Made by a program: the position numbers and the translations under genes. Below, piece by piece: positions 22,499 to 63,886 of a stretch of 64,000 nt of DNA (its first letter is position 1; every line of letters begins with the position of its first letter). The notes beneath the pieces were generated by a model. The model was not told the origin of the DNA, did not search any database, and saw only the letters and a list, made by a program, of their open reading frames with translations. Source of the DNA: Patescibacteria group bacterium (GTDB lineage: Bacteria; Patescibacteriota; Microgenomatia; JAMCYU01). Location of the stretch: assembly GCA_023473585.1 (NCBI GenBank), contig JAMCYU010000004.1:66033-130032 (forward strand), written 5' to 3'.

Positions 22499-24298
22499 AT
22501 GATCAAGTTTTTTTTCGTCGTTTTCTCTTTTTTCTTTTCTTTTCTTTTCTTCTTTGCCAAAGACGCCCGGGCTTCTAATGAATTTTCTTCAGCTTATGAT
22601 CTGACTTTCGAGGTCAAAAATGACGCCAAAACTTTTGTTTTACAAAATATCCATTTAACAAATTTAACGACCAATTATTACGCTTCCGAATACACCCTGA
22701 TTTTGGGAACCGATAAAATTGAACAAATAGAAGCTTTTGACGGTCAAGGACCATTAAAAATCAAGGTGGAAAAAAATTTCGAGCAAACCAAAATTCATGT
22801 TCAATTTAACGAAAAAATTGTCGGTTTGGGGAAAATTTTAAACTGGACTTTAAAATACCAAAGTTTGGAAATTGCCAAAAAATTAGGCAGAATCTGGGAA
22901 ATTAACATTCCCAGATTGTCTGCCGAAGAGAACCCGACCTTCTATAACGTTTCTCTCCTCGTCCCTCCGGTTTTTAATGAGCCGGCCTATGTTTTCCCGC
23001 AGCCTAAAAATCGCTATTACTGGACGCTTCATGAGGGTTCAAAAGACGGGATCAGTCTGGCTTTCGGTGACTGGCAAGGATTTAAATTTGATCTTAATTA
23101 TCATCTTGAAAATAAGCAACTTCTTTCCGGAAAAACGGAAATTGCTTTACCGGCAGACACACCTTACCAAAAGATAATTCTTAAAAATATTAACCCCAAA
23201 CCTAAAAAAATCAGGGTTGATCATGATGGCAATTGGTTAGCCGAGTATTTTCTTTTACCCAAACAAAAACTTGACGTTAAGGTTTCCGGTTCGGTGAAGA
23301 TTTTTGCCCAAGAACAACCCGATTACCCGAAAGACGACGGCGCTTCTGTTTACCATAATTATTTAAAGACGGAAGAATTTTGGGAGCAAAATGAAAAGAT
23401 AAAAGAGCTTGCTAAGCAATTAAAAACGCCGCGCGAGATCTATGATTACGTTATTAAAACTCTAAATTATGATTACGAACGCGCTAATCAGGAAACCAAG
23501 CGTCTGGGAGCGGCGGCAATTTTAACCCAGCCTCAAAAGGCTATTTGTATGGAATTCACTGATCTTTTCATTGCTTTAGCCAGAAGTTCAAATCTTCCCG
23601 CGCGTGAAGTTGATGGTTTTGCTTACACCAGCAATTCAAAACTAAAACCTCTGTCTTTAGTCACCGATGTTTTACATTCCTGGCCGGAATATTGGGATAA
23701 AGATAAAAATCTTTGGGTGCAAATTGATCCGACCTGGGGGAAAACCAGCCAGATGAATTATTTTGACCGCTTTGATTTTAATCATTTTGCTTTTGTCATC
23801 AGGGGTTTAAGTTCTAAAGAACCCTATCCCGCCGGTTCCTATCGAAGCCAAAGTGGCGGTAAAGACGTCCTGGTTGAATTTAGCGATGATATCCCGCAAG
23901 AAACGACGCAAAACCCAAAGGTCGAAATCGTTTTCCCCAAAAAATATCTTGCCGGTTTGCCCTTAAAAGGCAAAGTTATTATTTCTAACCCGAACCGGAC
24001 CGCTCTTTATAATTTAAAACCAAGCCTTAATTCCTCGTTCCAAATCAAGAATCATGATCTTGAAATCCCCATTTTGCCGCCTCAAGCCGAAAAAATCATG
24101 GAGATAGAAATTCCTAATAACGATTTTTTCCTTAATGCTTTAGGCTTGGTAACTTTAAGCTTGGATGGCCGACCTTACACGGCCAGGATAAACATTATTT
24201 CTTTGCCATTATTAATCATCCCGCTCGTTATTTTAATCGTCAGCTTAGGTTTTCTCCTTTGTCATGTTGGGAAAAAAATATGGACCAGAATCTTTTGA
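22499..24298 (+). CDS. transglutaminase-like domain protein, signal peptide and C-terminal TM anchor
   Basis: Catalytic-core-like AICMEFTDLF (Cys), HSWPEYW (His), DPTW (Asp). Confidence 0.5.
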   Translation: MIKFFFVVFSFFFSFLFFFAKDARASNEFSSAYDLTFEVKNDAKTFVLQNIHLTNLTTNYYASEYTLILGTDKIEQIEAFDGQGPLKIKVEKNFEQTKIHVQFNEKIVGLGKILNWTLKYQSLEIAKKLGRIWEINIPRLSAEENPTFYNVSLLVPPVFNEPAYVFPQPKNRYYWTLHEGSKDGISLAFGDWQGFKFDLNYHLENKQLLSGKTEIALPADTPYQKIILKNINPKPKKIRVDHDGNWLAEYFLLPKQKLDVKVSGSVKIFAQEQPDYPKDDGASVYHNYLKTEEFWEQNEKIKELAKQLKTPREIYDYVIKTLNYDYERANQETKRLGAAAILTQPQKAICMEFTDLFIALARSSNLPAREVDGFAYTSNSKLKPLSLVTDVLHSWPEYWDKDKNLWVQIDPTWGKTSQMNYFDRFDFNHFAFVIRGLSSKEPYPAGSYRSQSGGKDVLVEFSDDIPQETTQNPKVEIVFPKKYLAGLPLKGKVIISNPNRTALYNLKPSLNSSFQIKNHDLEIPILPPQAEKIMEIEIPNNDFFLNALGLVTLSLDGRPYTARINIISLPLLIIPLVILIVSLGFLLCHVGKKIWTRIF

Positions 24299-25572
24299 AC
24301 GACCTAAAAGGTTTGCCACAAACGCCGGGGGTTTATTTGTTTGCCGACAAAGAAAACCAAATTCTTTATGTCGGCAAGGCTCTGAATCTTCAGCATAGAG
24401 TCCGAAGTTATAAAAACGTCCTTGACCCAAAAACAAAACTTTTGTTCAGTCAGGTTGCCAAAATCAACCATATCAAAGTCTTTTCGGAATTTGAAGCGCT
24501 TTTGCTGGAAAGCTCCTTAATCAAAAAATATCAACCCAAATATAATTTAAGATTAAAAGACGATAAAAGTTTTTTATACATCGCCGTAACGCCGGAAGAA
24601 TATCCTAAGGTTTTAAGCGTCAGAAAAAACGATTTGACCCAAACCAAATATCTCTTTGGCCCTTTTCCTTCTGCAAAAACCGTTAAAGAGGTTTTGTTTT
24701 TTTTAAGAAAGATTTTTCCTTACTGCAGCCAGAAAGGCAAAAACTTAAAACCGTGTTTTTGGCATCATCTAAAACTCTGCGACCCTTGCCCCGGTGAAAT
24801 TAATAAATTAATTGGGGAAGAAAAGAAAAAACAAAAACAAATTTATCTTCGCAATCTAAAAAATTTGGCGGCTGTTTTATCGGGTGAATCCAAGAACTTA
24901 ATCAAAAATTTAACCTCGCAAATGCAATTGGCAGCCAAACAACAAAATTTCGAACAGGCCTTAACATTGCGCGATCAAAGAGAAAAACTAAACTGGTTAA
25001 CCGGTTCTTATTATCGAACCGGTCTTTATTTGGAAAAACCCAATTTTTTTGAAGAAGAACAGCAAAATGAGTTAAAAACTCTGAAAAAATTATTGAAGTT
25101 GCCCTCGTTAAAAAAAATTGAGGGTTATGATCTTTCCAATCTTTCCGGTCTTTTTGCCTCCGGCTCAATGGTCGTCTTTGCTGATGGCATCATGGCTCCT
25201 GATCAATACCGGCGCTTTAAAATAAAAAGAATCGGTCAGCCTAACGACGTCGGCATGCTCACCGAGGTTTTAACCCGGCGGCTTAAGCATCAAGAATGGA
25301 CTTATCCAGATTTAATTATGGTTGACGGCGGTCAGACTCAAGTTTCCGCGGCCTTAAAAATCATTAATTTGGCCAATTTAGATATTCCGGTGATCGGCTT
25401 AGCTAAAAAAATGGAGCGGATTATCTATAAAGATGGTCTTCTTTGGCGAAAACTAAAATTGGACGAAACCGATGCCGGCCTTAACCTTTTAAAAAGAATC
25501 AGAGACGAATCGCACCGTTTTGCTTTAGCTTATCATTTTAAGCTAAGAGAGAAAACTTTGGGTTTGACATAA
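24280..25572 (+). CDS. uvrC: excinuclease ABC subunit C (short form lacking C-terminal HhH)
   Basis: N-terminal GIY-YIG domain (GVYLF...ILYVGKA), UVR motif, RNase H-like endonuclease region. Only ~431 aa. Confidence 0.7.
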   Translation: MDQNLLNDLKGLPQTPGVYLFADKENQILYVGKALNLQHRVRSYKNVLDPKTKLLFSQVAKINHIKVFSEFEALLLESSLIKKYQPKYNLRLKDDKSFLYIAVTPEEYPKVLSVRKNDLTQTKYLFGPFPSAKTVKEVLFFLRKIFPYCSQKGKNLKPCFWHHLKLCDPCPGEINKLIGEEKKKQKQIYLRNLKNLAAVLSGESKNLIKNLTSQMQLAAKQQNFEQALTLRDQREKLNWLTGSYYRTGLYLEKPNFFEEEQQNELKTLKKLLKLPSLKKIEGYDLSNLSGLFASGSMVVFADGIMAPDQYRRFKIKRIGQPNDVGMLTEVLTRRLKHQEWTYPDLIMVDGGQTQVSAALKIINLANLDIPVIGLAKKMERIIYKDGLLWRKLKLDETDAGLNLLKRIRDESHRFALAYHFKLREKTLGLT

Positions 25573-25602: not shown

Positions 25603-26004
25603 ATGAAGACATTATTAAGGTTATTTCTCTACAGTACCTTTGCTCTGTGGCTGACCCAGGTTGTTTCCGGCGGCTTAAAAATAGCCGGCGGTTTAGAAAC
25701 GCAAATTATTGCCGGCGCCGCCTTAGCCTTTATTTATCTTTTCGTTAAACCCATCTTAAAACTCTTTTTTTTACCCATCAATCTTCTTTCTTTAGGACTC
25801 TTATCTTGGCTTATTAACGTGGCGATTTTATATGTGTTAACCCTGATGGTTCCCCAAATTACCATCTCGGCTTGGCAATTTTCTGGTTTATCTTATCAGG
25901 GATTTTCCCTCCCTTCTTATTATTTCAGCCAGACGACTTCTTTTGTGGCCTCCGCTCTTATCTTAAGCTTTTTTATTAATTTTTTAGTTTGGCTTTCTAA
26001 ATGA
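25603..26004 (+). CDS. DUF360/YvlD-like membrane protein (phage holin superfamily IV-like)
   Basis: 133 aa, four TM segments with a YvlD-like pattern. Confidence 0.4.
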   Translation: MKTLLRLFLYSTFALWLTQVVSGGLKIAGGLETQIIAGAALAFIYLFVKPILKLFFLPINLLSLGLLSWLINVAILYVLTLMVPQITISAWQFSGLSYQGFSLPSYYFSQTTSFVASALILSFFINFLVWLSK

Positions 26005-28626: not shown

Positions 28627-28713
28627 GGGCAAGTGGCGAAACTGGCAGACGCGCAGGCTTCAGGAGCCTGTTCCCTTTAACAAGGAATGGAGGTTCGAGT
28701 CCTCTCTTGCCCA
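28627..28713 (+). tRNA. tRNA-Leu (CAG)
   Basis: Class II cloverleaf: acceptor GGGCAAG/CUUGCCC, anticodon loop UUCAGGA, long variable arm, T-loop UUCGAGU. Confidence 0.8.
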
Positions 28714-28718
28714 CTTAA

Positions 28719-28805
28719 GCCGAGGTGGTGAAATCGGTAGACACGCAGCCTTGAGGAGGCTGTACCCTTAAACAAGGTGTGCAGGTTCAAATCCTGTCCT
28801 CGGCA
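28719..28805 (+). tRNA. tRNA-Leu (GAG)
   Basis: Acceptor GCCGAGG/CCUCGGC, anticodon loop UUGAGGA, long variable arm. Confidence 0.8.
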
Positions 28806-28888
28806 CAGCATAAGTGGGAGTTCGTTTACCCCGCTGATTGCGGAGCAATTTTGCGGGGAGTCTCCCCGAGAGCACTTAAAATAGAGAA

Positions 28889-29066
28889 TGACCGCTTAGC
28901 TCAACGGTGGAGCGCGACATTTACACCGCGCCTGCACTGGCCGGTTAGTTCAGTTGGTAGAACGCCTCGTTTACATCGAGGAAGTCGGAGGTTCGAGTCC
29001 TCCATCGGCCACAGTTTCGGCGGGCAGGTCGAAGAGGTTGGTGGTTCGAATCCACCAGCGGTCACC
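28889..29066 (+). other. two tRNA-half-like segments flanking tRNA-Val (5' half 28889-28938, 3' half 29012-29066 ending in encoded CCA)
   Basis: GACCGCU (5') and AGCGGUC-A-CCA (3') are perfectly complementary acceptor-like strands. The 5' piece has a canonical D-arm, the 3' piece a canonical T-arm GGUGGUUCGAAUCCACC. No canonical anticodon arm can be assembled. Confidence 0.3.
28939..29011 (+). tRNA. tRNA-Val (UAC)
   Basis: Acceptor GGCCGGU/AUCGGCC, anticodon loop UUUACAU, T-loop UUCGAGU. Confidence 0.8.
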
Positions 29067-29072
29067 AGAAGC

Positions 29073-29933
29073 TTATATTTTCGTTTTTTTCCATCGGCGG
29101 TAAAGAATAACTCCACCCAAAACCGGCACCCAGATAACCCCATAAACCATAATCCAAATTCCCTTTTCGGCCAAACCTCTTCCGGTATTGATTAAGGATC
29201 TGACGGCTAATTTAAAGACGACGGCCGGTCTAAAAGCCTGGCTTGGAGCGTAGGGAAGAGCCATTTCGTCTGAAGATAAATAAATCGTGATTTTTGATAA
29301 ACTGGCGGTTTGTTCCAAATATTTTTGCCTGCCTTTTAAAGCATCAATTTGATCCTGAAGACCAATCAGCTCCCGTTGAACCGTTAAGAGGTCCTGAACT
29401 TGTGCCGCCTTGTTCATAATTTCTTCAAATTTACTTTTGGTCGCTTCCAAAGTTTTTAAACGGGCCTCCAAATCAACATATTGGTCGGTTACGTCTGTTC
29501 CCATAACATTTTCTGAAGTAACCTTAACGGCAAGTTTTCGGTATTCGTCAATCGTCCCTTTAACTTTATCGGCGGGTATTCTTACCACAACTGTGGCAAA
29601 AGGCGCTTCTTCGGGTTGGCTAATAGTGCTTGAAACCATAAAACCGCCGTTCGTTTTGGCCAGATCGATGATTTTGTCAGCAACTTCCTTGACTTTTAAA
29701 ACGACCAAAGACATTGAGGTTTCTTCAACGATAATTCTTTTAGCCTGGTTCGTCGGCGCCGATTCTTGCTGAAAAGAAAGACGCGAAGGAAGGGGAGCGG
29801 AAGAAAAAAATTCGGAATAATTGGTTACCCTAGATAAACCGAAAGGAGAAACGCCAAAATAGGGCCGTAAGATAAAATAAACCAGGGCTATAAGAAGAAG
29901 GGAAGAGAGTTTGTGATTTTTAATCCAATCCAT
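29073..29933 (-). CDS. DUF4349-like membrane-anchored coiled-coil protein
   Basis: Start assigned to the internal Met (MDWIKNHK...) because the longer ORF runs into tRNA-Phe. N- and C-terminal TM segments with a central coiled coil. Confidence 0.45.
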   Translation of the reverse strand: MDWIKNHKLSSLLLIALVYFILRPYFGVSPFGLSRVTNYSEFFSSAPLPSRLSFQQESAPTNQAKRIIVEETSMSLVVLKVKEVADKIIDLAKTNGGFMVSSTISQPEEAPFATVVVRIPADKVKGTIDEYRKLAVKVTSENVMGTDVTDQYVDLEARLKTLEATKSKFEEIMNKAAQVQDLLTVQRELIGLQDQIDALKGRQKYLEQTASLSKITIYLSSDEMALPYAPSQAFRPAVVFKLAVRSLINTGRGLAEKGIWIMVYGVIWVPVLGGVILYRRWKKTKI

Positions 29934-29968
29934 AACTTCATGATAAAATTGAATAAAGTGTTTGTCAA

Positions 29969-29997
29969 GTAAACCCAAATTTGGTAGAATAAGTCGT
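29969..29997 (+). promoter_or_regulatory. sigma70-like promoter upstream of tRNA-Phe
   Basis: TTGTCA, 17 nt spacer, extended -10 TGgTAGAAT. Confidence 0.4.
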
Positions 29998-30023
29998 GTA
30001 CTTCCAAAACAAAGTTTGTACAT

Positions 30024-30096
30024 GCCGAGGTAGCCAAGGCGGTCACGGCGCGTGTCTGAAAAACATGAGATGACAGTTCGATTCTGTCCCTCGGCA
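30024..30096 (+). tRNA. tRNA-Phe (GAA)
   Basis: Acceptor GCCGAGG/CCUCGGC, anticodon loop CUGAAAA, T-loop UUCGAUU. Confidence 0.75.
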
Positions 30097-30162
30097 CTAG
30101 AAATTTACTCAGGAAACGTCTTTTGCGAAAATTATTTTTCGCAAGTAAATTTCTAGTGTGAA
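30094..30162 (+). repeat. ~65-nt palindromic hairpin element (paralog at 39277-39337)
   Basis: CACTAGAAATTTACT...AGTAAATTTCTAGTG outer 15-bp inverted repeat with a nested CTTTTGCGAAAA/TTTTTCGCAAG inverted repeat; begins at the 3' end of tRNA-Phe. Confidence 0.5.
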
Positions 30163-30213
30163 CACGTTTTAAAAGAAGATGTTTACACTGAAAAATCGTT
30201 TAGATTTTTTAGT

Positions 30214-30284
30214 GCGGGTGTGGTTTAATGGTAAAATAACTCCCTTCCAAGGAGTTGACGGCAGTTCGATTCTGCTCACCCGCT
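30214..30284 (+). tRNA. tRNA-Gly (UCC)
   Basis: Acceptor GCGGGUG/CACCCGC, anticodon loop CUUCCAA. Confidence 0.8.
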
Positions 30285-30349
30285 CAAGTCGTTGAGCGAG
30301 GCTCGCTAAAGGCGGCCCGCTCCCGAGTCAAACTCGGTTCGTAAAAGTT

Positions 30350-30420
30350 TTCGGGATCGTCTAGCGGTAGGACAGCAGCCTTTGGAGCTGCGAACCTAGG
30401 TTCGAATCCTAGTCCCGAAG
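30350..30420 (+). tRNA. tRNA-Gln (UUG)
   Basis: U1-A72 start as in bacterial tRNA-Gln, D-loop AGCGGUA, anticodon loop CUUUGGA. Confidence 0.7.
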
Positions 30421-30454
30421 CCGATTCGACTCGCGAAAGAATCATATTAATTAT

Positions 30455-30540
30455 GCCGGGGTGGCGGAACTGGCAGACGCGCAGGACTTAAAATCCTGTG
30501 ATGCTAACACATCGTGAGGGTTCGAGTCCCTCTCTCGGCA
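30455..30540 (+). tRNA. tRNA-Leu (UAA)
   Basis: Class II; anticodon loop CUUAAAA, long variable arm, T-loop UUCGAGU. Confidence 0.75.
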
Positions 30541-30598
30541 CAAAGGATGTTAATAATTATCACTTGCTAAATAGCGTGAGGTAATATACACTTAAGAC

Positions 30599-31024
30599 GT
30601 GAAAGACCTTAAGGAAATAAGAAGTGTTATACCGCTAATCATATGGTGGTGTGAAGGGACAAAACCCAGACGTGATAAGAGGTGGAAAAACGCAGTCCTT
30701 TGCCCAATAGAGGTTAGCAACACTGATCCAAAAATTATTAAAATATTTAGAGATTATCTTGTACAAGAATTGGGGGTTTCAGAAAAAGGTATAAAGGGTC
30801 AACTGCAAGTTCATGAAGGAGATAATAAAAGTGAACTTGAGATTTATTGGTCAAAAATAACCGATATTCCATTGAGTCAATTCAATAAAACTATCATAAG
30901 AAAAATCGGAAATAAACCTGGAAAGAGTAAAGGAACTTTCAAATTAAGATTTTACAATAAAAGAGTATATAAAAAACTAGAAAGCTCTTTAACTAAATTT
31001 TTGAAGCTCTTTAACGGAGTGTAG
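30599..31024 (+). CDS. hypothetical protein embedded in tRNA cluster
   Basis: 141 aa ORF, GTG start 8 nt after a TATACA -10. Its stop codon lies inside the 5' end of tRNA-Pro. No recognisable domain. Confidence 0.3.
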   Translation: MKDLKEIRSVIPLIIWWCEGTKPRRDKRWKNAVLCPIEVSNTDPKIIKIFRDYLVQELGVSEKGIKGQLQVHEGDNKSELEIYWSKITDIPLSQFNKTIIRKIGNKPGKSKGTFKLRFYNKRVYKKLESSLTKFLKLFNGV

Positions 31025-31091
31025 CGCAGTTGGCTAGCGCGCCTCGTTTGGGACGAGGAGGTCCCCGGTTCAAGTCCGGGCACTCCGACCA
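31015..31091 (+). tRNA. tRNA-Pro (UGG), CCA encoded
   Basis: C1-G72 pair typical of bacterial tRNA-Pro, anticodon loop UUUGGGA, 3' end ...CACUCCG-A-CCA. Confidence 0.8.
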
Positions 31092-31140
31092 ACTTAAAAG
31101 TGAGGGTTTGGTTCATAGCAGAACAATTCACTAGGGTTAC

Positions 31141-31212
31141 GCGGGAGTAGTTCAGCAGTAGAACGTTTCCTTGCCAAGGAAAAGGTCGCGGGTGCGAATC
31201 CCGTCTCCCGCT
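31141..31212 (+). tRNA. tRNA-Gly (GCC)
   Basis: Acceptor GCGGGAG/CUCCCGC, anticodon loop UUGCCAA. Confidence 0.8.
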
Positions 31213-31278
31213 CAAGCGCCTTTGGCGACTTGAGCGAGGCTCGCCTCGCCTGAAAGGCGGGCGGCCCGCTCTATATTT

Positions 31279-31530
31279 ATGTTTATTGTTTACGTCCTTC
31301 AAAGTCTCAAAGATAACAAGACATACGTTGGATATACCGACAATTTTGAGAGACGATTCAAACAGCATAATTCAGGGAAATCAAAATCTACAAAAAATCG
31401 AGCGCCATTTAAATTACTCTTCGAAGAAGAATTTGAAAATTCAGTTGAAGCGAAAAAACGAGAGTTGTGGTGGAAAAGCGGAATTGGAAGAAAGAAACTG
31501 AAGGAGTATTTTGATAAGATCAAGAAATGA
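31279..31530 (+). CDS. GIY-YIG nuclease family small protein (YhbQ/UPF0213-like)
   Basis: 83 aa; IVYVLQSLKDNKTYVGYTDNFERRFKQHN matches the GIY-YIG (GIY...YVG..R...H) pattern. Follows tRNA-Gly and a GC-rich hairpin. Confidence 0.65.
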   Translation: MFIVYVLQSLKDNKTYVGYTDNFERRFKQHNSGKSKSTKNRAPFKLLFEEEFENSVEAKKRELWWKSGIGRKKLKEYFDKIKK

Positions 31531-31853
31531 CAGAAAAGATATGTTTTAAGCGAGGGCTCTTTGGAGCGCTTCCCGGATATTTTTGCCGCCAAACCAACCT
31601 TTAAGATATAAAATTGTGTGTTTGTTCCGATGCCAGTCCTGAAGATAATATTTATCAATACGTCCACCCCTTTTTAAGAAAATAGCGATTAGTTCATCGA
31701 TAGAGGATTTTGTATTTATACCTTATTATAACACACCCAAAATTTAATTTCTCCGAGAGCTTGATAAGCTTCTTGTAACTTGATAAAATAGTTTTAATTG
31801 CCTCGAGCAGACGCGTTACAACGCGATTTGGTATAATCAAATCGCTAGTTTTT

Positions 31854-31927
31854 GCTCTCGTAGCTCAATTGGATAGAGCAGAGGGTTTCTAACCTTCAGG
31901 TTGCGTGTTCGAATCACGCCGAGAGCG
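31854..31927 (+). tRNA. tRNA-Arg (UCU)
   Basis: Acceptor GCUCUCG/CGAGAGC, anticodon loop UUUCUAA. Preceded by extended -10 TGgTATAAT embedded in the 8-bp inverted repeat GCGATTTG...CAAATCGC. Confidence 0.75.
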
Positions 31928-32047
31928 CAAAAAGAAGCGCGCGGTTGGGGGGTTCGCTTGCCCCGTAGACGACTTTAAGGAGTTCTTCGGGGAGTCCCTC
32001 TGGAGGCGCACGATAAGTTGGGAAAAGACAGGTGTTTTATCCCATAT

Positions 32048-32120
32048 GGTGGATGTAGCTCACCAGTAGAGCGCCCGCCTGTGAAGCGGGAGGAAGCGGG
32101 AGCATCACCCGTCATCCACC
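32048..32120 (+). tRNA. tRNA-His (GUG) with encoded G-1; atypical D- and T-loops
   Basis: 8-bp acceptor including G-1:C73 (His hallmark) and anticodon loop CUGUGAA. D-loop ACCAGUA lacks G18G19; T-loop AGCAUCA lacks the UUC motif. Confidence 0.5.
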
Positions 32121-32153
32121 CATAAAGACTTAGGCCGTTACGACGACATATAG

Positions 32154-37412: not shown

Positions 37413-38228
37413 ATGAGGAAAAAAACGAAAAACGCGAACTTTTCTTCTCAAGATTTAATCCGCATCCCGACGGAAAGTAACGAACTTTTGGAAAAAGTTC
37501 TTCAGGAAATAAACCGAAATGTTGAGGTTAAAACGCTTTGGCGGGTCATGAACGTTAACGCTATCGAACGCCTGCACATGACCGATCACGGCTCGGTCCA
37601 TTTTCAGATTGTGGCCAACAGCGGGCTTCGCTTATTGCGGCTTTTGGTTAAAAGAAAAATTGAAATGTCCGTGACCAAAAATTATAAACTTTCCCATAAA
37701 TACGCCGAACTTGTGGTTTTGCTGGCCAGTCTTTTTCATGATTTGGGCATGTCGATTAATCGGGAAGGCCATGAAGACTTTAGTTTGTTTTTGACGGAAA
37801 ATCTTCTTAAAGATTTTTTATCTTTTCTACCGACCGAGGAAAGAGTCATCATTAAATCAGAAGTTTTACACGCCATTATCAGCCACCGCAGTGACGGCCG
37901 GCCTATTACCGTTGAAGCGGGGATTATGAGAGTGGCCGACGCTTTGGATATGAGTCAGGGACGCTCCCGGATTCCTTTTGAGGCCGGAAATATCGACATT
38001 TACTCCATCTCCGCCTACGCCATCGATAACGTCGAAATCAAGGAGGGTAAGGAAAAACCGGTCCAGATTAATGTTTATATGAATAATTCCTCGGGTATTT
38101 TCCAGGTTGACCAGCTTTTGAAAAGCAAGTTGGAAAACTCGGGTATTTCGCAATATATTGGGATTAAAGCTTTTGTCGTCGGCGAAGCGGAGAAGAAATT
38201 AATCAACGAGTTTGATCTAACGCCCTAA
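37413..38228 (+). CDS. HD-domain phosphohydrolase-like protein
   Basis: H..H...HDLG...H pattern (HGSVHFQ, FHDLGMS). Confidence 0.4.
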   Translation: MRKKTKNANFSSQDLIRIPTESNELLEKVLQEINRNVEVKTLWRVMNVNAIERLHMTDHGSVHFQIVANSGLRLLRLLVKRKIEMSVTKNYKLSHKYAELVVLLASLFHDLGMSINREGHEDFSLFLTENLLKDFLSFLPTEERVIIKSEVLHAIISHRSDGRPITVEAGIMRVADALDMSQGRSRIPFEAGNIDIYSISAYAIDNVEIKEGKEKPVQINVYMNNSSGIFQVDQLLKSKLENSGISQYIGIKAFVVGEAEKKLINEFDLTP

Positions 38229-39155
38229 TTTATTTTTTAATCCTTCGTACATAACCTTAGTTAATTTTGCCAGGTCATACTTGGGTTTCCAGTTCCAGTC
38301 TTTTCTCGCTTTTCTATCATCAATCGAATTCGGCCAGGAATCGGCAATTTTCTGCCGGTCGTCAGGTTTATAATTATAAGTAAAATCAGGCGCCAATTTA
38401 ACAATTTCCCCAATTAATTCTCTTGGGGTAAAACTGATGGCGGCAAAATTATAACTGGTTCTTATAGTTATTTTCTTTGCCGGCGCTTCCATAAGTTTGA
38501 TGGTTCCGTCAATCGCGTCGTCAATATACATCATGGGCAAACGCGTGTTCTCTTTTAAAAAGACAGTGTAGTGTTTTTGCCGTATGGCTCCATAGAAAAT
38601 ATGAACGGCATATTCGGTTGTGCCGTCACCCGGAGGGGCTTTATAACCGATAAGCCCCGGGTAGCGAAGGCTGCGGACATCCAGCCCGTATTTTAAAAAA
38701 TAATATTGGCATAAGAGTTCACCGGCAACTTTATTGACTCCGTACATTGTCGTCGGTTCAAGAATCGTCGATTGAGGAGTATTGATTTTCGGCGTCGTCG
38801 AACCAAAAGCAGCGATAGAGCTTGGCCAGAAAACCTTTGCTTTATATTTGACTGCCAAATCAAGAATATTTTTAAGACCACCCAAATTGACATCCCAGGC
38901 AAGTTGAGGATTTTTTTCACTGCCAACCGATAACAAACCGGCAAGGTGGTAAATCTCGTTTATCTTGTGTTTTTTAATGATTTTATCTAAGGAAAGGAGA
39001 TCGGTGACATCGCCATTTTCAACAATTGTCTGAGAATCTCTTGTGGCTTTATGAGCAAGGGTAACGATATTTTTTGCAGAATACTTTTTAGTTAAAGCTT
39101 CGACCAGGTCCGTACCAACTAATCCAAACGCGCCGGTAACCAGTATCTTTTTCAT
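38217..39155 (-). CDS. NAD-dependent epimerase/dehydratase (extended SDR; L-threonine dehydrogenase/GalE-like)
   Basis: N-terminal Rossmann VTGAFGLVG and catalytic YGVNK (YxxxK). Confidence 0.6.
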   Translation of the reverse strand: MKKILVTGAFGLVGTDLVEALTKKYSAKNIVTLAHKATRDSQTIVENGDVTDLLSLDKIIKKHKINEIYHLAGLLSVGSEKNPQLAWDVNLGGLKNILDLAVKYKAKVFWPSSIAAFGSTTPKINTPQSTILEPTTMYGVNKVAGELLCQYYFLKYGLDVRSLRYPGLIGYKAPPGDGTTEYAVHIFYGAIRQKHYTVFLKENTRLPMMYIDDAIDGTIKLMEAPAKKITIRTSYNFAAISFTPRELIGEIVKLAPDFTYNYKPDDRQKIADSWPNSIDDRKARKDWNWKPKYDLAKLTKVMYEGLKNKLGR

Positions 39156-41851: not shown

Positions 41852-41933
41852 GCCGCGATGGCGGAATTGGCATACGCATACGGCTTAGGACCGTATCCCG
41901 CAAGGGTTGGGGGTTCAAGTCCCTCTCGCGGCA
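41852..41933 (+). tRNA. tRNA-Leu (UAG)
   Basis: Class II; acceptor GCCGCGA/UCGCGGC, anticodon loop CUUAGGA; TATAAT upstream. Confidence 0.75.
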
Positions 41934-41943
41934 CTTGCTCTTT

Positions 41944-43458
41944 ATGACAAATTTAACACCAGCAGCGCAGGAATTGATTGCCGCTGTTTCGAAAAATTAT
42001 CAAGAAAAACAATCTTGGGAAAGAGAAGCCAAGATTCATAGTCAGGAAACAATTTCTTTTTTTGCTTTTCTTTATGAGAAGCTAAGAAATTTTGTGGACT
42101 ATCAGGAAGAACATCTTTTGCGCCGTCGTGCCATTACCAGAGCCTTAAGCCGGCGCCTCATCTTTCCTCAGCCAAGCGAAGAAACGGCCAGAGCTTTAAT
42201 TTTAGAGCTTATCAGGGCCCGCTATTTTCCCAATAATAAAATTCCTGAAAATAAAATCTTGGCAGTTTCTCAAATCATTGATAAGTTTTCCGGTCTTATT
42301 AAGGTCCTTCCTGAAATAAAAGAACTCTTAATCGGTTTTGCGGCGAGAGAAATTGAGGAAATTTTAACGCTCGATCATGAAACCGCCCTGCTTTTATTTG
42401 CCCAGAAGGTCTTTAAAGAAAGACTTTTGGTTAAAGACGACGCGATTCTTTTTATTGCCCTGGAGGAGGCTCTATCCCGCGCTGATGAAACGACAATCCG
42501 CTACCATTTAATCAAGTTCTCTTTGCCCAACTGGGATAACGCCGAACGCCTTGAAAAAATTAATCAGGAAATCACTCATAGACTCGCTTCCCCGGATAAA
42601 GAACCTCTGGCAAGACGCGTCAGAAAAGAAATCGCTCCCTATGTTATTTTGCGTGACTTAATCAATCAAAATGAGGCTGATTTAACCAGTATTTTTGCCA
42701 ATCCTGATCTTTTGGATAAAGTTGTCACTCAAGTGGCCTCAAACCGCTACCGTCAAGCCGCCACTAATTTACGGACGGCCGCCATTCAGAGTTTTATTTA
42801 TATCTTTTTAACGAAAATGGTTTTTGCTTTTATTATCGAGGTTCCTTATGATCTTTATATTTTACGCCGGTTTAATTTATTGCCTTTGGTTGTCAATTTG
42901 CTTTTCCCGCCGGCTTTTATGGTGATGACGACCCAAACCGTGACGATCCCTGGTTTTGGCAATACCCAAAAAATCATGAGAGAACTTAAATCGGCGATTT
43001 ATTTTCAACCGGGATTAACCATACCCAGGATTAATCTTGATCTTTTAAGCCGGGTCAGACCCTTTTTAGATCTGACTTTCAGGCTTTTTTATCTCTTAAC
43101 GTTTGTCCTGGTTTTCGGTTCCGTCGTTTATATCTTAAAGAAACTTGAATTTAGTTTAGCCTCGATGGCCGTTTTCTTCTTTTTTGTTTCCACCGTTGCC
43201 TTTTTTGCTTTTAGAATTCGCCGCAACTTCGGTGATTTAACGATTGCCGAAGAAAAAGAAGGACTTTTGAGCGGACTTTTCAATTTTATCTCTTATCCTT
43301 TTATACGACTGGGTCTGGTCTTTTCCAAAGCTCTCTCCCGGTTTAACATTTTTATCTTAATTTTGGATCTTTTAATTGAAACACCTTTAAAAATGGTTTT
43401 TGAATTAATTGAGGAATGGTTTGCTTTTATTAGAAGAAAACAAGAGGAGATTCTTTAA
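41944..43458 (+). CDS. hypothetical membrane protein (N-terminal soluble domain, C-terminal multi-TM)
   Basis: ~505 aa, no recognisable motif. Confidence 0.4.
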   Translation: MTNLTPAAQELIAAVSKNYQEKQSWEREAKIHSQETISFFAFLYEKLRNFVDYQEEHLLRRRAITRALSRRLIFPQPSEETARALILELIRARYFPNNKIPENKILAVSQIIDKFSGLIKVLPEIKELLIGFAAREIEEILTLDHETALLLFAQKVFKERLLVKDDAILFIALEEALSRADETTIRYHLIKFSLPNWDNAERLEKINQEITHRLASPDKEPLARRVRKEIAPYVILRDLINQNEADLTSIFANPDLLDKVVTQVASNRYRQAATNLRTAAIQSFIYIFLTKMVFAFIIEVPYDLYILRRFNLLPLVVNLLFPPAFMVMTTQTVTIPGFGNTQKIMRELKSAIYFQPGLTIPRINLDLLSRVRPFLDLTFRLFYLLTFVLVFGSVVYILKKLEFSLASMAVFFFFVSTVAFFAFRIRRNFGDLTIAEEKEGLLSGLFNFISYPFIRLGLVFSKALSRFNIFILILDLLIETPLKMVFELIEEWFAFIRRKQEEIL

Positions 43459-43462
43459 AGAA

Positions 43463-44512
43463 ATGAAAAAATTTATTCTTTTTATTTTTATTATTTTTGT
43501 CGCTTCAATTATCTTTATTGCCAGATTAACTCGACAGGGAACTTCTGCTCTTAAAACGGAAAAAGTGCAAAGGGGAACAATTACGAAAAGCGTGTCTGCT
43601 TCCGGAGAAATAACCTCGGAAGAAATTGCCGAATTGAAATTTCAAACCTCAGGGCAACTTGCCTGGGTTGGGGTTAAAGAAGGTGAACAAGTCCAGGCTT
43701 AGCAAGCCCTTGCCCAACTTGACACCAGAGAACTTCAGAAAACTTTAGAAAAATACTTAAGGGATTATGCCAAACAAAGAAACGATTTCGAGGAGATGAA
43801 TCGGGAAACCTATCGCGGACAAACACCCTCAACCGCTCTCACTAATACCGTGAGGCGAATTTTAGAAAAAAACCAGTGGGACATGGATAAAGCGGTTTTG
43901 GATGTTGAATTAAAGGATATCGCCTTAAAATATGCCACTTTGGTAACGCCCATCTCGGGCATCGTCACGCAAGTGGAAACACCTCTCGCGGGAATAAATA
44001 TTACCCCGTCAACGGCCGTTTTTAAAGTCTCTAATCCCGAAAAAATGATTTTTAAGGCTAATCTCGACGAGACCGATATTGCCGGCGTTGTCCCCGGTCT
44101 TAAAGCCCAAGTGACACTCGATGCCTATCCTGAAGAAAAATTTGCCGGAGAAATAACTAAAATTGCTTTCCAGGCAATCACAACTTCGGGCGGCGGAACG
44201 GCTTTTCCCACCGAAATAACTTTGCCGCAAAATGAGAATTTTAAATTTAAATTAGGGATGAACGGTGATGCCGAAATTATCTTGCAAACAAAAGATGATG
44301 TCCTTAAGGTCTCTTCGGAAGTTTTAATGAAAAGTGACGATAAAAATTACGTTTGGTTAGTTGTCGGTAAAAAAGCCAAAAAACAGGAAGTTCAAACCGG
44401 CATCGAGGGAGAAGAAGCCGTCGAAATTACCAGTGGCTTAAAAGAGAATGATATTGTTATTAAGTCGGGAACCTCCAAAATCAAAGAAGGTCAAAAAATT
44501 GACAGCCAATGA
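43463..44512 (+). pseudogene. HlyD/MacA-family periplasmic adaptor subunit interrupted by an in-frame TAG at 43700-43702
   Basis: ORFs 43409..43702 and 43796..44512 share a frame. Sequence ...VGVKEGEQVQA*QALAQLDTRELQ spans the stop and fits the adaptor pattern V.EG..V..G..LA.LD. N-terminal TM anchor; beta-barrel/MP domains downstream. Confidence 0.55.
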
Positions 44513-45186
44513 CAGATGACAAACTTCTCCTGCGGATTCAAAATGTAAGCAAGATCTTTCGATTAGACGGTCTTGAGGTTAAAGATCTTAATAATGTTTC
44601 CTTAGAAATAAAAAAAGGTGAATTTGTTTCGATTATGGGGCCCTCCGGTTGCGGTAAGTCAACTTTAATGTATTTACTGGGCTGTCTTGATAAACCAACC
44701 TCCGGAAAAATAATTCTTGAGGACAAAGACTTTTCTTCACTCTCGGAAATCGAACTGGCTAAAATCAGAAATCAAAAAATCGGTTTTGTTTTTCAAATGT
44801 TTAATCTTTTACCCAGAACTTCAGCCTTAACTAATGTTGAGTTGCCTCTTGTTTATTCTAATTTAAATTCCGAAACCAGGCATCAAAAAGCTAAAGAAGC
44901 GTTAGAAAGAGTTGGTCTGGGAAATAGAATCTCGCATTTCCCAAATCAGCTCTCCGGAGGACAGCAGCAAAGAATTGCGATTGCCAGGGCCTTAATTAAT
45001 CATCCCTCTTTAATTTTAGCTGATGAACCGACAGGGAATATCGATTCTAAAGCCGGTAAGGAAATTATGGATTTATTGAAAAATCTTAACAAACAAGGCA
45101 ATACCATTATTTTGGTTACTCATGATATCGAAATCGCTAATTATGCCCAAAGAATAATCTCAATGCGCGATGGACGAATTGTTTGA
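44509..45186 (+). CDS. ABC transporter ATP-binding protein (MacB/LolD-like)
   Basis: Walker A GPSGCGKST, signature LSGGQQQRIAIARAL, Walker B ILADEPTGNID. Confidence 0.85.
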   Translation: MTDDKLLLRIQNVSKIFRLDGLEVKDLNNVSLEIKKGEFVSIMGPSGCGKSTLMYLLGCLDKPTSGKIILEDKDFSSLSEIELAKIRNQKIGFVFQMFNLLPRTSALTNVELPLVYSNLNSETRHQKAKEALERVGLGNRISHFPNQLSGGQQQRIAIARALINHPSLILADEPTGNIDSKAGKEIMDLLKNLNKQGNTIILVTHDIEIANYAQRIISMRDGRIV

Positions 45187-46378
45187 AATTATTAAAATAG
45201 CTTTTACCGCTTTAAGAGCCAATAAAATGCGCTCTCTTTTAACGATGCTGGGCGTTATTATTGGGGTTTCTTCAGTCATCCTTCTGGTTTCTATCGGCAG
45301 CGGCTTACAGGGCTATATTACGAAACAACTTGAGGATTTGGGGGCAAAAAACATTATGCTGATGCCGGGAAATATCGGCTTAGGACAAGGCGGCAGCGGC
45401 GGAGGGGTTCCCGGAGCCGGCATGATGGCTTCAAAATTTGACATGGAACAGGTAAAGGCTTTGGAAAAAGCCGATCTGGTCAGTCTCGTTATGCCCTACA
45501 CGGAAAACAACAGCACTTTGCGTTTTGGCAAAAATTCCCATATTACGCAAATCGCCGGCGTCAGCGTCGATTATCCGGAAATTAGAAACCAGAAAATTGC
45601 CGCCGGGCGCTTTTTTAATCACAATGAACAAAATTCGGCTAAAAAAGTCGTGGTTTTGGGAAAAACCGTGGCGGAAAAATTATTTGCGGAAGAAAACCCC
45701 GTCAATAAAAAAATTACGATTGGGGATGGCCGTTATACTGTCTTGGGGATCTTGGAAGAAAAGGGAGGAATGAGCGGTGTTGATATGGACGATCAGGCGT
45801 TTATTCCCGCCACGACCGCCCTTCGCGAATTCGACATGGAGCATTTTATCGCCATCTGGGTTCAGGCAAAATCACAAGAAAATATGGAAGAAACGAAAAC
45901 CCAAGTTAAAAAAATTATGCTGAAGTTTCTTAAAGATGATGAGTTTTCCGTTTTAGACACGAAAAGTCTTTTAAATACGATTGCCACGATTCTTAGTGCC
46001 TTAACTTTAGCTTTAGGTGGAATTGCCGCTATTTCTCTTTTAGTCGGCGGCATTGGCATCGCCAACATCATGCTTGTTTCCGTAACCGAAAGAACCAGAG
46101 AAGTTGGTTTAAGAAAAGCCGTCGGCGCCACGCCACGATTAATTTTATTACAATTCTTAATTGAGGCCATGATTCTTTCCATAACGGGCGGTCTTATCGG
46201 CATTATTATTGGGGGAGGGGGCAGCTTTCTTTTAAGTAAATTTATCCCCAGCGCCGTCACTTTTTGGTCTATTTTAATCGCTTTTGTCGTTTCCGCCTTA
46301 GTCGGTATTGTTTTTGGCTTAGCGCCGGCCATGCGAGCGTCTCGGCTGACACCAGTTGACGCTTTAAGATACGAGTGA
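45170..46378 (+). CDS. ABC transporter permease (MacB/FtsX-like)
   Basis: 402 aa. N-terminal TM, large periplasmic domain, C-terminal FtsX-like 3-TM bundle. Confidence 0.8.
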   Translation: MDELFEIIKIAFTALRANKMRSLLTMLGVIIGVSSVILLVSIGSGLQGYITKQLEDLGAKNIMLMPGNIGLGQGGSGGGVPGAGMMASKFDMEQVKALEKADLVSLVMPYTENNSTLRFGKNSHITQIAGVSVDYPEIRNQKIAAGRFFNHNEQNSAKKVVVLGKTVAEKLFAEENPVNKKITIGDGRYTVLGILEEKGGMSGVDMDDQAFIPATTALREFDMEHFIAIWVQAKSQENMEETKTQVKKIMLKFLKDDEFSVLDTKSLLNTIATILSALTLALGGIAAISLLVGGIGIANIMLVSVTERTREVGLRKAVGATPRLILLQFLIEAMILSITGGLIGIIIGGGGSFLLSKFIPSAVTFWSILIAFVVSALVGIVFGLAPAMRASRLTPVDALRYE

Positions 46379-46392
46379 TAGACTAAAAATTA

Positions 46393-47175
46393 ATGAGAAA
46401 AGTTCTGCCCGTTTTCGTCTTGGTTTTCCTTCTCTTTTTCCCTTTTGTGACTTCTTCGGTTTTTGCTGATTTTGATAAAACCTACCAGACTTATATTTCT
46501 CAATATGACGAGTACCGGATAAGTTTGACTAATTTTTTAACGAGCAAAAATCGTTATCTCACGTACAAAACCTTGACGGCTCAAACCGAAGCTCTAACGG
46601 CCACCAAGGTTTTTCTTGAGGACCGCGACCAAACCCTAATTAATTTCATGACCATGATTTTGGAGAAAAATCCTTCGGAAAGTTTTAAAAAATTAATAAG
46701 TGATGAAATTGTCTTTTTTTCAGATCATAAAAAATTAGTTACCGCCGTCGCTTCTTTGGAAGACAGCGTTCAGGTTTCCGAAACTTTTACTAACCGTTTT
46801 CCCACCACTGAAGTTTTATTAAGGCAAACAATCGCCAATGTCTTGCTTTCTAAAGTAAAAAGTTTCGACGAACAAATCGTCGATCTTATGGCGCGCTTTG
46901 AAGAAAAAATTAATTTTCTTAAAAGTCAGGGAAAAGACGTTTCCACCCTGGAACGCTGGCTTTTAGAAACAAAAAACAAACAATTATTAGCTCACGAAAA
47001 ACTAACCACAGCTCAATTGATGGCTGATCAATTTCAAACAAATAATAACCCCGCGAAGATCTCTGAAGATTTCAGAAAGGTTCAGGTTTTGATTTTTGAA
47101 GCCAATCAATATCTTAAGGAATCAACGGCTTATCTTCGGGAAATAAAGGAAGAACTCAAATATGGAAATTATTGA
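46393..47175 (+). CDS. hypothetical secreted protein
   Basis: Signal peptide MRKVLPVFVLVFLLFFPFVTSSVFA. Confidence 0.4.
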   Translation: MRKVLPVFVLVFLLFFPFVTSSVFADFDKTYQTYISQYDEYRISLTNFLTSKNRYLTYKTLTAQTEALTATKVFLEDRDQTLINFMTMILEKNPSESFKKLISDEIVFFSDHKKLVTAVASLEDSVQVSETFTNRFPTTEVLLRQTIANVLLSKVKSFDEQIVDLMARFEEKINFLKSQGKDVSTLERWLLETKNKQLLAHEKLTTAQLMADQFQTNNNPAKISEDFRKVQVLIFEANQYLKESTAYLREIKEELKYGNY

Positions 47176-47536
47176 AAATAACATTCCTGGTCCGGAGGTA
47201 AATAATTCAGAAAAAATAAGATTAGATTTACATCCCGATCGGAAAAAAATCTTTATATTTTTAGGCTTAATTATCCTTATCGGCCTAATCGCCATCGGCA
47301 GCATCGCTCTTTTTTTTGTGAAAAAACCCGCGACGGAAATTTCTTCTTCGCCTAATCCTTCCGTTGAGGCAACACCAAGTGCTAAAAGAAATCTCTCGGC
47401 GATTGCGACCGACGCGGCTTTTTTAAAACTTGAGGAAGATCTTAATAATTTGGAAAAAAATATTGGCACCGTTGATCTGACGGAACCAAAACTGACGCTG
47501 CCGATTTTGGAAATGAAAATTAGTTTCGAAAAATAA
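47162..47536 (+). CDS. hypothetical single-pass membrane protein
   Basis: 124 aa with central TM IFIFLGLIILIGLIAIGSIALFFV. Confidence 0.35.
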   Translation: MEIIENNIPGPEVNNSEKIRLDLHPDRKKIFIFLGLIILIGLIAIGSIALFFVKKPATEISSSPNPSVEATPSAKRNLSAIATDAAFLKLEEDLNNLEKNIGTVDLTEPKLTLPILEMKISFEK

Positions 47537-47619
47537 CATTCACCCTTAAGGCTAAATGTTTTCTTTGTTTCAACTCATCCCCGCCAGAGGCGGGGTATTC
47601 TTGAAACGCCAAATAAAAA
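47527..47619 (+). ncRNA. candidate structured RNA element (paralog of 32528-32610)
   Basis: UUCGAAAAAUAACAUUCACCCUUAAGG..GUUUUCUUUG-GUUUCAA-CUCAUCC-[CCCCGCC-AGA-GGCGGGG]-UAUUC-UUGAAAC-GCCAAAUAAAAAG. Lies immediately upstream of the rarA -10. Confidence 0.35.
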
Positions 47620-61833: not shown

Positions 61834-61855
61834 AACCTTGTGCTATACTAGCCTC

Positions 61856-63886
61856 ATGGAGCTCGCAACGCCCGTTCAAAACGTCTACATGGTCGGTCCG
61901 ACTTACGCAAAAAGACTGGAAAAATTAGGTCTTAAAACCGTCGAGGATTTGCTGTTTCATTTTCCCCACCGCTACGAAGACTATTCTTTAATTTCCAAAA
62001 TTAACCAGATTAAACCCGGAGAAACAGTTACCATTCAGGGAATCGTTAACGAAATTAAAAATGAATACACGAAAAACGGCAAAAAAATCCAAAAAGCCTT
62101 AGTTTCTGACGGGACAAAAATTTTAGAAGTTACCTGGTTTAATCAGCCTTTTTTGATAAGAACGATTAAAGTGGGGGAGACCTACAATTTTTCCGGCAAA
62201 GTCAATTGGTTCGGCCATAAAGTAAGCTTAATCAGCCCCGAATACGAACAGGTCTCGGGTCAAAGATATGAAACTTTGGGCTCAATTCATACCGGCAGAC
62301 TCGTTCCCATCTATTCGGAAACTTACGGCGTTACCTCCAAATGGTTGCGTTCAAGAATTGCCCCCCTTTTAAATGAATACCTGCCTTTATTTACCGAATA
62401 TCTGCCGGATAAGGTTATCAGTAAAAATCAACTTTTGGCTTACCAAAAAGCGATTAGGCAAATTCATTTCCCCGATAATCAATATTTCGCGGATGCGGCT
62501 AAAAAGAGACTGGCTTTTGACGAATTATTTCTTATTCAACTGGCCTCTCTTAAAAGAAAAAAAAGGCAAGAAAAAGAAAAAGTTAAATATCAATTTAAAA
62601 TAGACCCGTACCAAACCTCAATCGAAACCTTTATCAAAAAATTACCGTTTGTCTTAACTAGAGCGCAACAAAGAGTCGTACGGGAGATATTTCATGATCT
62701 TGCTCAACCCAAACCTATGAATCGTCTGCTTGAGGGCGACGTCGGTTCCGGAAAAACGGTGGTCGCCGCAATCAGCATGTATTTTTCTTATCTTAACGGC
62801 TGTCAGTCCCTTTTGCTGGCACCGACCGAAATTTTAGCCAACCAGCATTTTAAGACCCTGAAAGACCTGCTTTCTCCTTTCGGCGTGAAAGTTAATTTGC
62901 GAAGCGGAAGCTTCAAAAAAGAGGAAGAATTTGATATTTTAGTCGGGACTCACGCTCTTTTATCGGAAAAAATTAAGATTCAGAAATTAGGCCTGGTTGT
63001 TGTTGACGAACAACACCGCTTCGGGGTTGAGCAAAGAAAACAAATTCGAGAGAAAGGAGTTAATCCGCATCTTTTGTCGATGACCGCCACCCCTATTCCC
63101 CGAACCGTAGCCTTGACTTTATACGGCGATCTTGATCTGTCTTTTTTAGACGAAATGCCCAAGGGTCGAATGAAGGTCAAAACCTGGGTTGTCCCCTCAT
63201 TAAAAAGAGAGGCGGCTTATGCCTGGATAAAAAAACGGGTAAAAGGAACCAAAGAACAGGCTTTTATTATCTGCCCCCTAATTGAAGAGTCGGAAACTTT
63301 AGTTTCCGTTAGGGCGGCCACTCAGGAATTTGAAAGTCTGCAAAAGAAAATTTTTCCGGATCTTCGCTTGGGCCTTCTTCATGGCCGGATGAAAGCTCGG
63401 GATAAAGATTTGGAAATTGAACGCTTTCGGTCGGGCAAATTGGATATTTTGGTTGCCACGCCGGTCGTTGAGGTCGGGATTGATATTCCCCAGGCAACCA
63501 TCATGATGATTGAGGGAGCGGAAAGATTCGGCTTGGCGCAACTGCATCAATTAAGAGGTCGGGTCGGCCGGGCAAATCTTGTCTCTTATTGTCTTCTTTT
63601 TAGTGAATCCGAGCAAAATCAAAGACTTAAGGCCATGGAAAAAATCCATATCGGCGCCAATTTGGCCGAAGTCGACCTGCAGATGCGCGGTCCGGGTGAA
63701 GTTTTAGGAACCAAACAACACGGCATCCCTGATTTGAGAGTTGCCTCCTTAACCGATAAGCTTTTGATTACCGAAACGAGGTTGGCCGCTCAAGAAACCA
63801 TCAATGAAGATTTGTCTTTGAAGAAATTTCCCCTCTTGAAAGAAAAGCTTGAAAGATTTACAATAAAAGCGGTTTCATCTGATTAG
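61856..63886 (+). CDS. recG: ATP-dependent DNA helicase RecG
   Basis: N-terminus MELATPVQNVYMVGPTYAKRLEKLGLKTVEDLLFHFPHRYED; helicase motifs GDVGSGKT, DEQHRFG. Confidence 0.9.
   Translation: MELATPVQNVYMVGPTYAKRLEKLGLKTVEDLLFHFPHRYEDYSLISKINQIKPGETVTIQGIVNEIKNEYTKNGKKIQKALVSDGTKILEVTWFNQPFLIRTIKVGETYNFSGKVNWFGHKVSLISPEYEQVSGQRYETLGSIHTGRLVPIYSETYGVTSKWLRSRIAPLLNEYLPLFTEYLPDKVISKNQLLAYQKAIRQIHFPDNQYFADAAKKRLAFDELFLIQLASLKRKKRQEKEKVKYQFKIDPYQTSIETFIKKLPFVLTRAQQRVVREIFHDLAQPKPMNRLLEGDVGSGKTVVAAISMYFSYLNGCQSLLLAPTEILANQHFKTLKDLLSPFGVKVNLRSGSFKKEEEFDILVGTHALLSEKIKIQKLGLVVVDEQHRFGVEQRKQIREKGVNPHLLSMTATPIPRTVALTLYGDLDLSFLDEMPKGRMKVKTWVVPSLKREAAYAWIKKRVKGTKEQAFIICPLIEESETLVSVRAATQEFESLQKKIFPDLRLGLLHGRMKARDKDLEIERFRSGKLDILVATPVVEVGIDIPQATIMMIEGAERFGLAQLHQLRGRVGRANLVSYCLLFSESEQNQRLKAMEKIHIGANLAEVDLQMRGPGEVLGTKQHGIPDLRVASLTDKLLITETRLAAQETINEDLSLKKFPLLKEKLERFTIKAVSSD

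Follow-up and report, generated by a model that had tools for sequence, protein, structure and literature searches.

Does a stop codon inside an otherwise conserved gene mark a gene that has died, a fault in the assembly, or a codon that the cell passes over? This question is raised by an efflux adaptor gene on the plus strand of the 64-kb stretch of DNA analysed here (the window), in which a single 349-codon frame contains one internal stop, a TAG at codon 80. A first-pass annotation, made from the letters of the DNA, had proposed a very recent nonsense mutation, a sequencing error and stop-codon readthrough or suppression as possible explanations. The first of these readings is supported by the TGG codon found in relatives, by the absence of decay in the surrounding genes and by the lack of a recoding signal, and the stop is very probably a true nonsense mutation, TGG to TAG at Trp80 of the adaptor, specific to this lineage and recent on an evolutionary scale.

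An efflux adaptor gene with one internal stop

The features on which the argument depends are listed here by their positions in the window.

43463-44512, plus strand: adaptor, a membrane-fusion protein of the HlyD/MacA/YknX type, 349 codons, recognized from its translation and from Pfam HlyD_D23 and HlyD_3; very probably a pseudogene in this strain
43463-43699, plus strand: the part still open to translation, 79 residues, which from its sequence has a hydrophobic anchor at the N-terminus (residues ~4-20) and then the opening strands of the lipoyl/barrel-sandwich domain
43700-43702, plus strand: premature TAG derived from TGG (Trp80) by G to A at 43701, from DNA alignment with relatives and the composition of the alignment column
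43703-44512, plus strand: remainder predicted to go untranslated, codons 81-349, with the alpha-hairpin, the second lipoyl half, the beta-barrel and the membrane-proximal domain
44509-45186, plus strand: ABC ATPase resembling the N-terminal half of MacB or LolD, intact (Pfam ABC_tran, 3e-36; NCBIfam MacB N-terminal part, 6e-76)
45170-46378, plus strand: MacB-type permease (MacB_PCD plus FtsX), intact (Pfam MacB_PCD, 4e-48; FtsX, 7e-19)
47579-47595, plus strand: GC-rich hairpin of 7 G-C pairs whose tail lacks a clean T run, from a consensus scan

Translation of the adaptor frame gives WVGVKEGEQVQA, then the stop, then QALAQLDTRELQ, with VKEGEQVQA directly before the stop, and codon 80 is flanked on either side by homologous sequence in one frame. 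When the stop is replaced by X, the Pfam HlyD_D23 match runs across it (residues 40-235, 64.6 bits against a cut-off of 30), HlyD_3 scores 48.4 bits (cut-off 22.2), Biotin_lipoyl_2 gives a weak match to residues 58-87, and a search at E<=1e-10 with this protein brings up over 1000 adaptor homologues of full length. An intact orthologue, P0001, scores 146.5 bits against the NCBIfam model TIGR01730 RND_mfp (cut-off 94.9) and covers positions 2-320 of its 322, so membership of the adaptor family is given by scores above the curated cut-offs of TIGR01730, HlyD_D23 and HlyD_3. Relatives of known structure in the PDB include MacA and the TriA/TriB adaptor, and the 238-residue ORF that follows the stop carries precomputed Pfam Beta-barrel_YknX and YknX_C domains. 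The internal TAG reported in an adaptor of the HlyD/MacA type is thus real, since a single frame, the homology and the HlyD_D23 match all cross it. The TAG at codon 80 leaves only the anchor, whose sequence starts MKKFILFIFIIFVASIIFIA, and the first half of the lipoyl domain as translatable protein.

All sites in the window at which two ORFs, each running from stop to stop over 60 codons or more, adjoin in one frame were scanned for similar interruptions. The adaptor was the sole real coding pair that has no start codon near the stop on its downstream side, the next start lying 31 codons on, and the remaining same-frame junctions were ordinary adjacent genes or spurious ORFs. The first in-frame start past the stop is the ATG at 43796, against which a GAGGAG abuts at zero spacing. 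Restart at this ATG to give a functional C-terminal protein was considered and rejected, given the unspaced GAGGAG, the absence of an anchor and the loss of half of the lipoyl domain.

The pump operon and its neighbours

The identity proposed for the gene and its operon (adaptor, ABC ATPase and MacB_PCD/FtsX permease) proved correct. The ATPase and permease genes are adjacent and in the conserved order of MacB-type (type VII ABC) systems, and the order adaptor, ATPase, permease recurs in most of 14 Microgenomates-like genome loci, with the ATPase in 12 and the permease in 13. Proteins identical to the ATPase are present in NCBI as MCL4382325.1 and MCL5095403.1, and the source names given for these and for the adaptor homologues assign the organism to the Patescibacteria group, close to Gottesmanbacteria and other Microgenomates. 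The first-pass annotation had also described ATGA overlaps, in the plural, between these genes; one exists, where the adaptor stop overlaps the ATPase start at 44509-44512, whereas the ATPase and permease genes are joined instead by a 17-nt overlap that extends from the ATG at 45170 to the TGA ending at 45186.

Other genes lie close to the pump genes on both sides. The product of orf504 (41944-43458), which ends 4 nt upstream of the adaptor, resembles a multi-pass membrane protein, and the pump genes are also tightly flanked by orf260 (46393-47175), with a signal-peptide-like N-terminus, and orf124 (47162-47536). Pfam and NCBIfam gave no match to any of them. All three keep their synteny in L004 and L022, the two close relatives described below, and a weak relative of orf260 (27% identity) is found right behind the permease gene in a distant locus, L008. 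The hairpin at 47579-47595 is the first terminator-like site past the run orf504-adaptor-ATPase-permease-orf260-orf124, in a region where the total of such sites from the consensus scan is not above the shuffled expectation. Directly upstream of orf504, between the pump genes and orf197/orf180, which encode secreted proteins lacking LysM, there is a tRNA-Leu(UAG) gene (41852-41934); orf197 and orf180 match the same regions of distant loci and are apparent paralogues. Among the ORFs adjoining the operon, none stood out as a TolC-like outer-membrane partner. A TolC-like exit duct may not apply to Patescibacteria.

The ancestral codon

The closest homologue of the adaptor, P0001, is an intact protein of 349 residues that is 98% identical and reads VQAWQALAQLD at the site of the stop. 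Its contig, L004 (Logan assembly, SRR22388012), is syntenic with the window and 98.4% identical to it in a gap-free alignment of 7770 nt that contains 121 substitutions. A more distant contig used as the outgroup, L022 (GCA_040960625.1, 787 kb), is also syntenic, at ~91% nucleotide identity, and encodes an intact 349-residue adaptor (P0123) with TGG at this codon. In the DNA alignment at codon 80, TAG is found in the window, L001 and L002, and TGG in L004. Three-taxon parsimony with the window, L004 and L022 assigns the change from tryptophan to stop to the window branch, as one G to A transition at 43701.

Across the 120 closest homologues the codon-80 column is occupied by W in 87, Y in 19, G in 11, F in 2 and N in 1, all of them sense. 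The earlier statement that the stop falls where family members typically have a glycine is therefore wrong for this clade, in which 87 of the 120 have Trp and 11 have Gly; Gly does occupy the site farther out in the family, for example in the TriA/TriB adaptor (PDB 6vej). Since both L004 and L022 have TGG and tryptophan holds the majority of the column, the stop is best explained as a single TGG to TAG transition on the window branch. The features of a nonsense pseudogene are present together: a sense codon one substitution away, intact orthologues (P0001 and P0123), and no functional restart.

A scan of genome contigs recovered only relatives of at most 63% identity, from Gottesmanbacteria, Shapirobacteria and other Patescibacteria MAGs, which indicates that the window's own species is absent from the scanned representatives. 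At five loci (L008, L010, L014, L016 and L018) an adaptor operon of the Microgenomates type, with 43-63% identity, occurs in MAGs titled 'uncultured Gammaproteobacteria bacterium' or 'Pseudomonadales'. These titles, one of which belongs to a 615-kb 'chromosome', look like placeholders or mistakes, and the genomes are apparently patescibacterial.

Error, readthrough or recoding

If the organism has TGG at codon 80, the A at 43701 would be an artefact of sequencing or assembly, or a minority allele within the population. The closest strain does differ from the window by one base here. The same TAG is shared, however, by contigs that match the window at 100% identity over 9.5-10.7 kb, namely L001 (Logan assembly, SRR10267473), L002 (NCBI GCA_023380895.1, JAMCSI010000012.1) and a second NCBI contig, of the 50-200 kb class, that may be the window's own source contig. 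It was thus recovered by different pipelines, in two NCBI contigs and one Logan contig, although the complete identity of these contigs means that they could share their samples and read sets or draw on related ones, and their independence is not proven. The 79-residue truncated product is annotated on both NCBI contigs. The quality of the consensus also appears high, in that the 121 differences from L004 over the surrounding 7.8 kb are clean substitutions without a single indel, and all 15 neighbouring syntenic genes that were compared are full length, matching those of L022. Because the TAG recurs in 100%-identical contigs of other assemblies, an assembler artefact is unlikely, an error or minority allele at 43701 is given little weight, and the sequencing-error reading of the first-pass annotation is disfavoured. 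A scan of JGI metagenome contigs for exact copies of the local sequence, with either A or G accepted, gave 0 matches, which is uninformative on allele frequency, and a literature search on the run and assembly accessions returned no matching papers.

Several conserved genes of the window use TAG as their natural terminator. For example, UvrA (19574-22489, 971 residues) ends on TAG, and the next gene begins 10 nt on with a signal-like N-terminus of its own; RecG (61838-63886, 682 residues) ends on TAG with its C-terminal domain covered to residue 672 of 682; and an epimerase (38217-39155, minus strand, 312 residues) ends on TAG, as does its L022 orthologue of equal length. Stop usage in the window is approximately TAA 37, TGA 18 and TAG 8, as estimated from a crude gene call with 93% coding density. 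The first-pass annotation had called for a survey of the genome for other in-frame TAGs in conserved genes and for a suppressor tRNA with anticodon CUA. Over the 64-kb window, to which these two surveys apply, no other interrupted gene was found, the adaptor TAG being the sole in-frame TAG in a real gene, and none of the 15 tRNAs has the CUA anticodon, so a suppressor tRNA inside the window is ruled out. A recoding RNA element at the stop was likewise ruled out, as there were no Rfam matches at E<=1 within 43300-44700 and no stable structure past the stop, where the 121 nt from 43690 to 43810 fold more weakly than 200 of 200 shuffled sequences (z = +2.2).

These observations bear on two further explanations of the stop. 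One is that an amber suppressor tRNA, or near-cognate tRNAs acting at UAG-C, read through it often enough to supply full-length adaptor for the pump. In E. coli, termination at UAG is comparatively weak when the next base is C. The stop in the adaptor does lie in this context (TAG CAA), the 269 codons past it and both pump genes are free of frameshifts, extra stops and any clear excess of non-synonymous changes, and a suppressor tRNA could sit elsewhere in the genome, of which the tRNA search covered 64 kb. Against this stand the natural termination of UvrA, RecG and the epimerase on TAG, the lack of a tRNA-CUA among those of the window, and the blank search for a stimulatory 3' RNA element or structure. 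In addition, a stop that is read through would be expected to be conserved in related lineages, and the two closest relatives have TGG; the one degenerate motif tried, requiring TAG, had 0 matches among JGI metagenome contigs, as had the exact sequence, and lends no support to conservation. The absence of decay would be expected in any case at ~1.6% divergence. Functional readthrough or suppression is therefore assigned a small chance. The other explanation, programmed recoding of TAG as pyrrolysine or through a genome-wide change of code, has the existence of an in-frame TAG in its favour and nothing further. With TGG at the orthologous codon of close relatives, conserved genes ending on TAG at normal C-termini, and neither a tRNA-CUA nor a second in-frame TAG in a real gene, the marks of genome-wide TAG reassignment are missing from the window, for which recoding is effectively refuted and scarcely credible.

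Age of the mutation

Compared pairwise between the window and L004, adaptor codons 1-79 give a dN/dS of 0.07 (~5 substitutions) and codons 81-349 one of 0.21 (~15 substitutions). When codons that differ between the window and L004 were polarized with L022 as outgroup, over the adaptor, ATPase and permease genes together, the window branch carried ~5-6 non-synonymous changes besides the stop and 9 synonymous ones, and the L004 branch 4 and 8, respectively. The two branches thus do not differ in a way that would signal relaxed selection after the stop, in counts that are too small for such a signal. From the lack of detectable decay in the operon we infer that the mutation is recent relative to the ~1.6% divergence between the strains. 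The intact ATPase and permease genes and the few changes past the stop would fit a very recent mutation and a continued low level of use equally well. Conceivably, too, the TAG allele has been kept because the strain tolerates it or gains from it, through tuned readthrough, a suppressor tRNA encoded outside the window, or an adaptive loss of the adaptor in an episymbiont-like lineage, and this we give only a slim chance.

One substitution past the stop can be noted separately. Adaptor codon 141 (43883-43885) encodes methionine (ATG) in the window and leucine in 120 of 120 homologues, both close relatives included. Neutral change in the now dead stretch of the gene may have begun here, or the substitution may simply be a conservative one; a single change proves nothing.

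Predicted consequences and significance

Under the preferred reading, a recent nonsense mutation, the ancestral TGG (Trp80) of a three-gene operon for a MacAB/YknXYZ-like ABC efflux pump would have become TAG by the G to A change at 43701, in a patescibacterial host (Microgenomates, near Gottesmanbacteria) that presumably uses the standard bacterial code. Translation would then halt past Ala79 and yield a 79-residue membrane-anchored stub without the alpha-hairpin, half of the lipoyl domain, the beta-barrel and the membrane-proximal domain, parts that are needed to engage the pump, so that the adaptor is expected to be non-functional. Near-cognate misreading of UAG-C might supply trace amounts of full-length adaptor at most. 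Ribosomes would be released ~810 nt upstream of the ATGA junction, and translational coupling to the ATPase gene would be lost; because the ATPase start depends on this overlap, early release should lower expression downstream, and the ATPase and permease are probably under-expressed. We infer, then, both a loss of adaptor function and a polar effect on the two pump genes.

In practical terms, the adaptor of the window strain should be labelled a pseudogene with an internal stop, and the finding has little weight beyond this annotation. Nothing in the window points to an alternative genetic code in this lineage of Patescibacteria. The finding does provide a small, clean case of an efflux-operon gene inactivated at the strain level, as seen between two genomes that are 98.4% identical, and may be of use in studies of population variation or gene loss in reduced genomes.

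Other features of the window

Elsewhere in the window, a dense tRNA cluster (28627-32121) places 11 genes in 3.5 kb (Leu x3, Val, Phe, Gly x2, Gln, Pro, Arg and His). The ORFs called within it are short (88-141 residues), overlapping and spurious-looking, save for one of 316 residues on the minus strand (29073-30023). In addition, a UvrC homologue (24259-25572) has only 437 residues; it contains the GIY-YIG, UVR and RNase H endonuclease domains and stops just past the last of these, without the usual C-terminal helix-hairpin-helix region. The ORF beside it (25603-26004) encodes a separate 133-residue membrane protein of the holin family (Phage_holin_4_2) and is no UvrC remnant.

Comparison with known systems

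An amber nonsense mutation of the TGG to TAG type is a textbook event of an already known kind. Like ordinary amber pseudogenes that arise in this way, the adaptor gene shows a one-step transition, intact nearest orthologues, no compensating start and no recoding signal. It differs from them in that the allele is seen in several metagenome assemblies, and is otherwise unremarkable.

Judged by sequence likeness, the operon may be compared with both MacAB and YknXYZ. With the MacA-MacB macrolide/enterotoxin efflux system of E. coli (PDB 5nik and 3fpp) it shares an adaptor of the MFP family followed by a transporter of the MacB_PCD plus FtsX type. The ATPase and permease are encoded by separate genes here, whereas E. 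coli has a single fused MacB; the score against the MacA equivalog model, 86.5 bits, is far under the cut-off of 342; no TolC-like partner was seen near the operon; and the adaptor of the window strain is broken by a stop.

The split arrangement of adaptor, ATPase and permease, in this order, is that of YknXYZ in Bacillus subtilis and of Spr0693-0694-0695 in Streptococcus pneumoniae (PDB 5xu0). As in these systems, the adaptor appears from its sequence to have an N-terminal membrane anchor and not a lipobox, its orthologues carry precomputed Pfam Beta-barrel_YknX and YknX_C domains, and there is a weak PDB match to 5xu0. Sequence similarity to the Gram-positive pumps is only distant, and the operon differs from them in its extra conserved neighbours, orf504, orf260 and orf124. 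The presence of Beta-barrel_YknX and YknX_C on the orthologues nevertheless suggests that the likeness of this operon to the split pumps of Gram-positive bacteria is as great as its likeness to E. coli MacAB.
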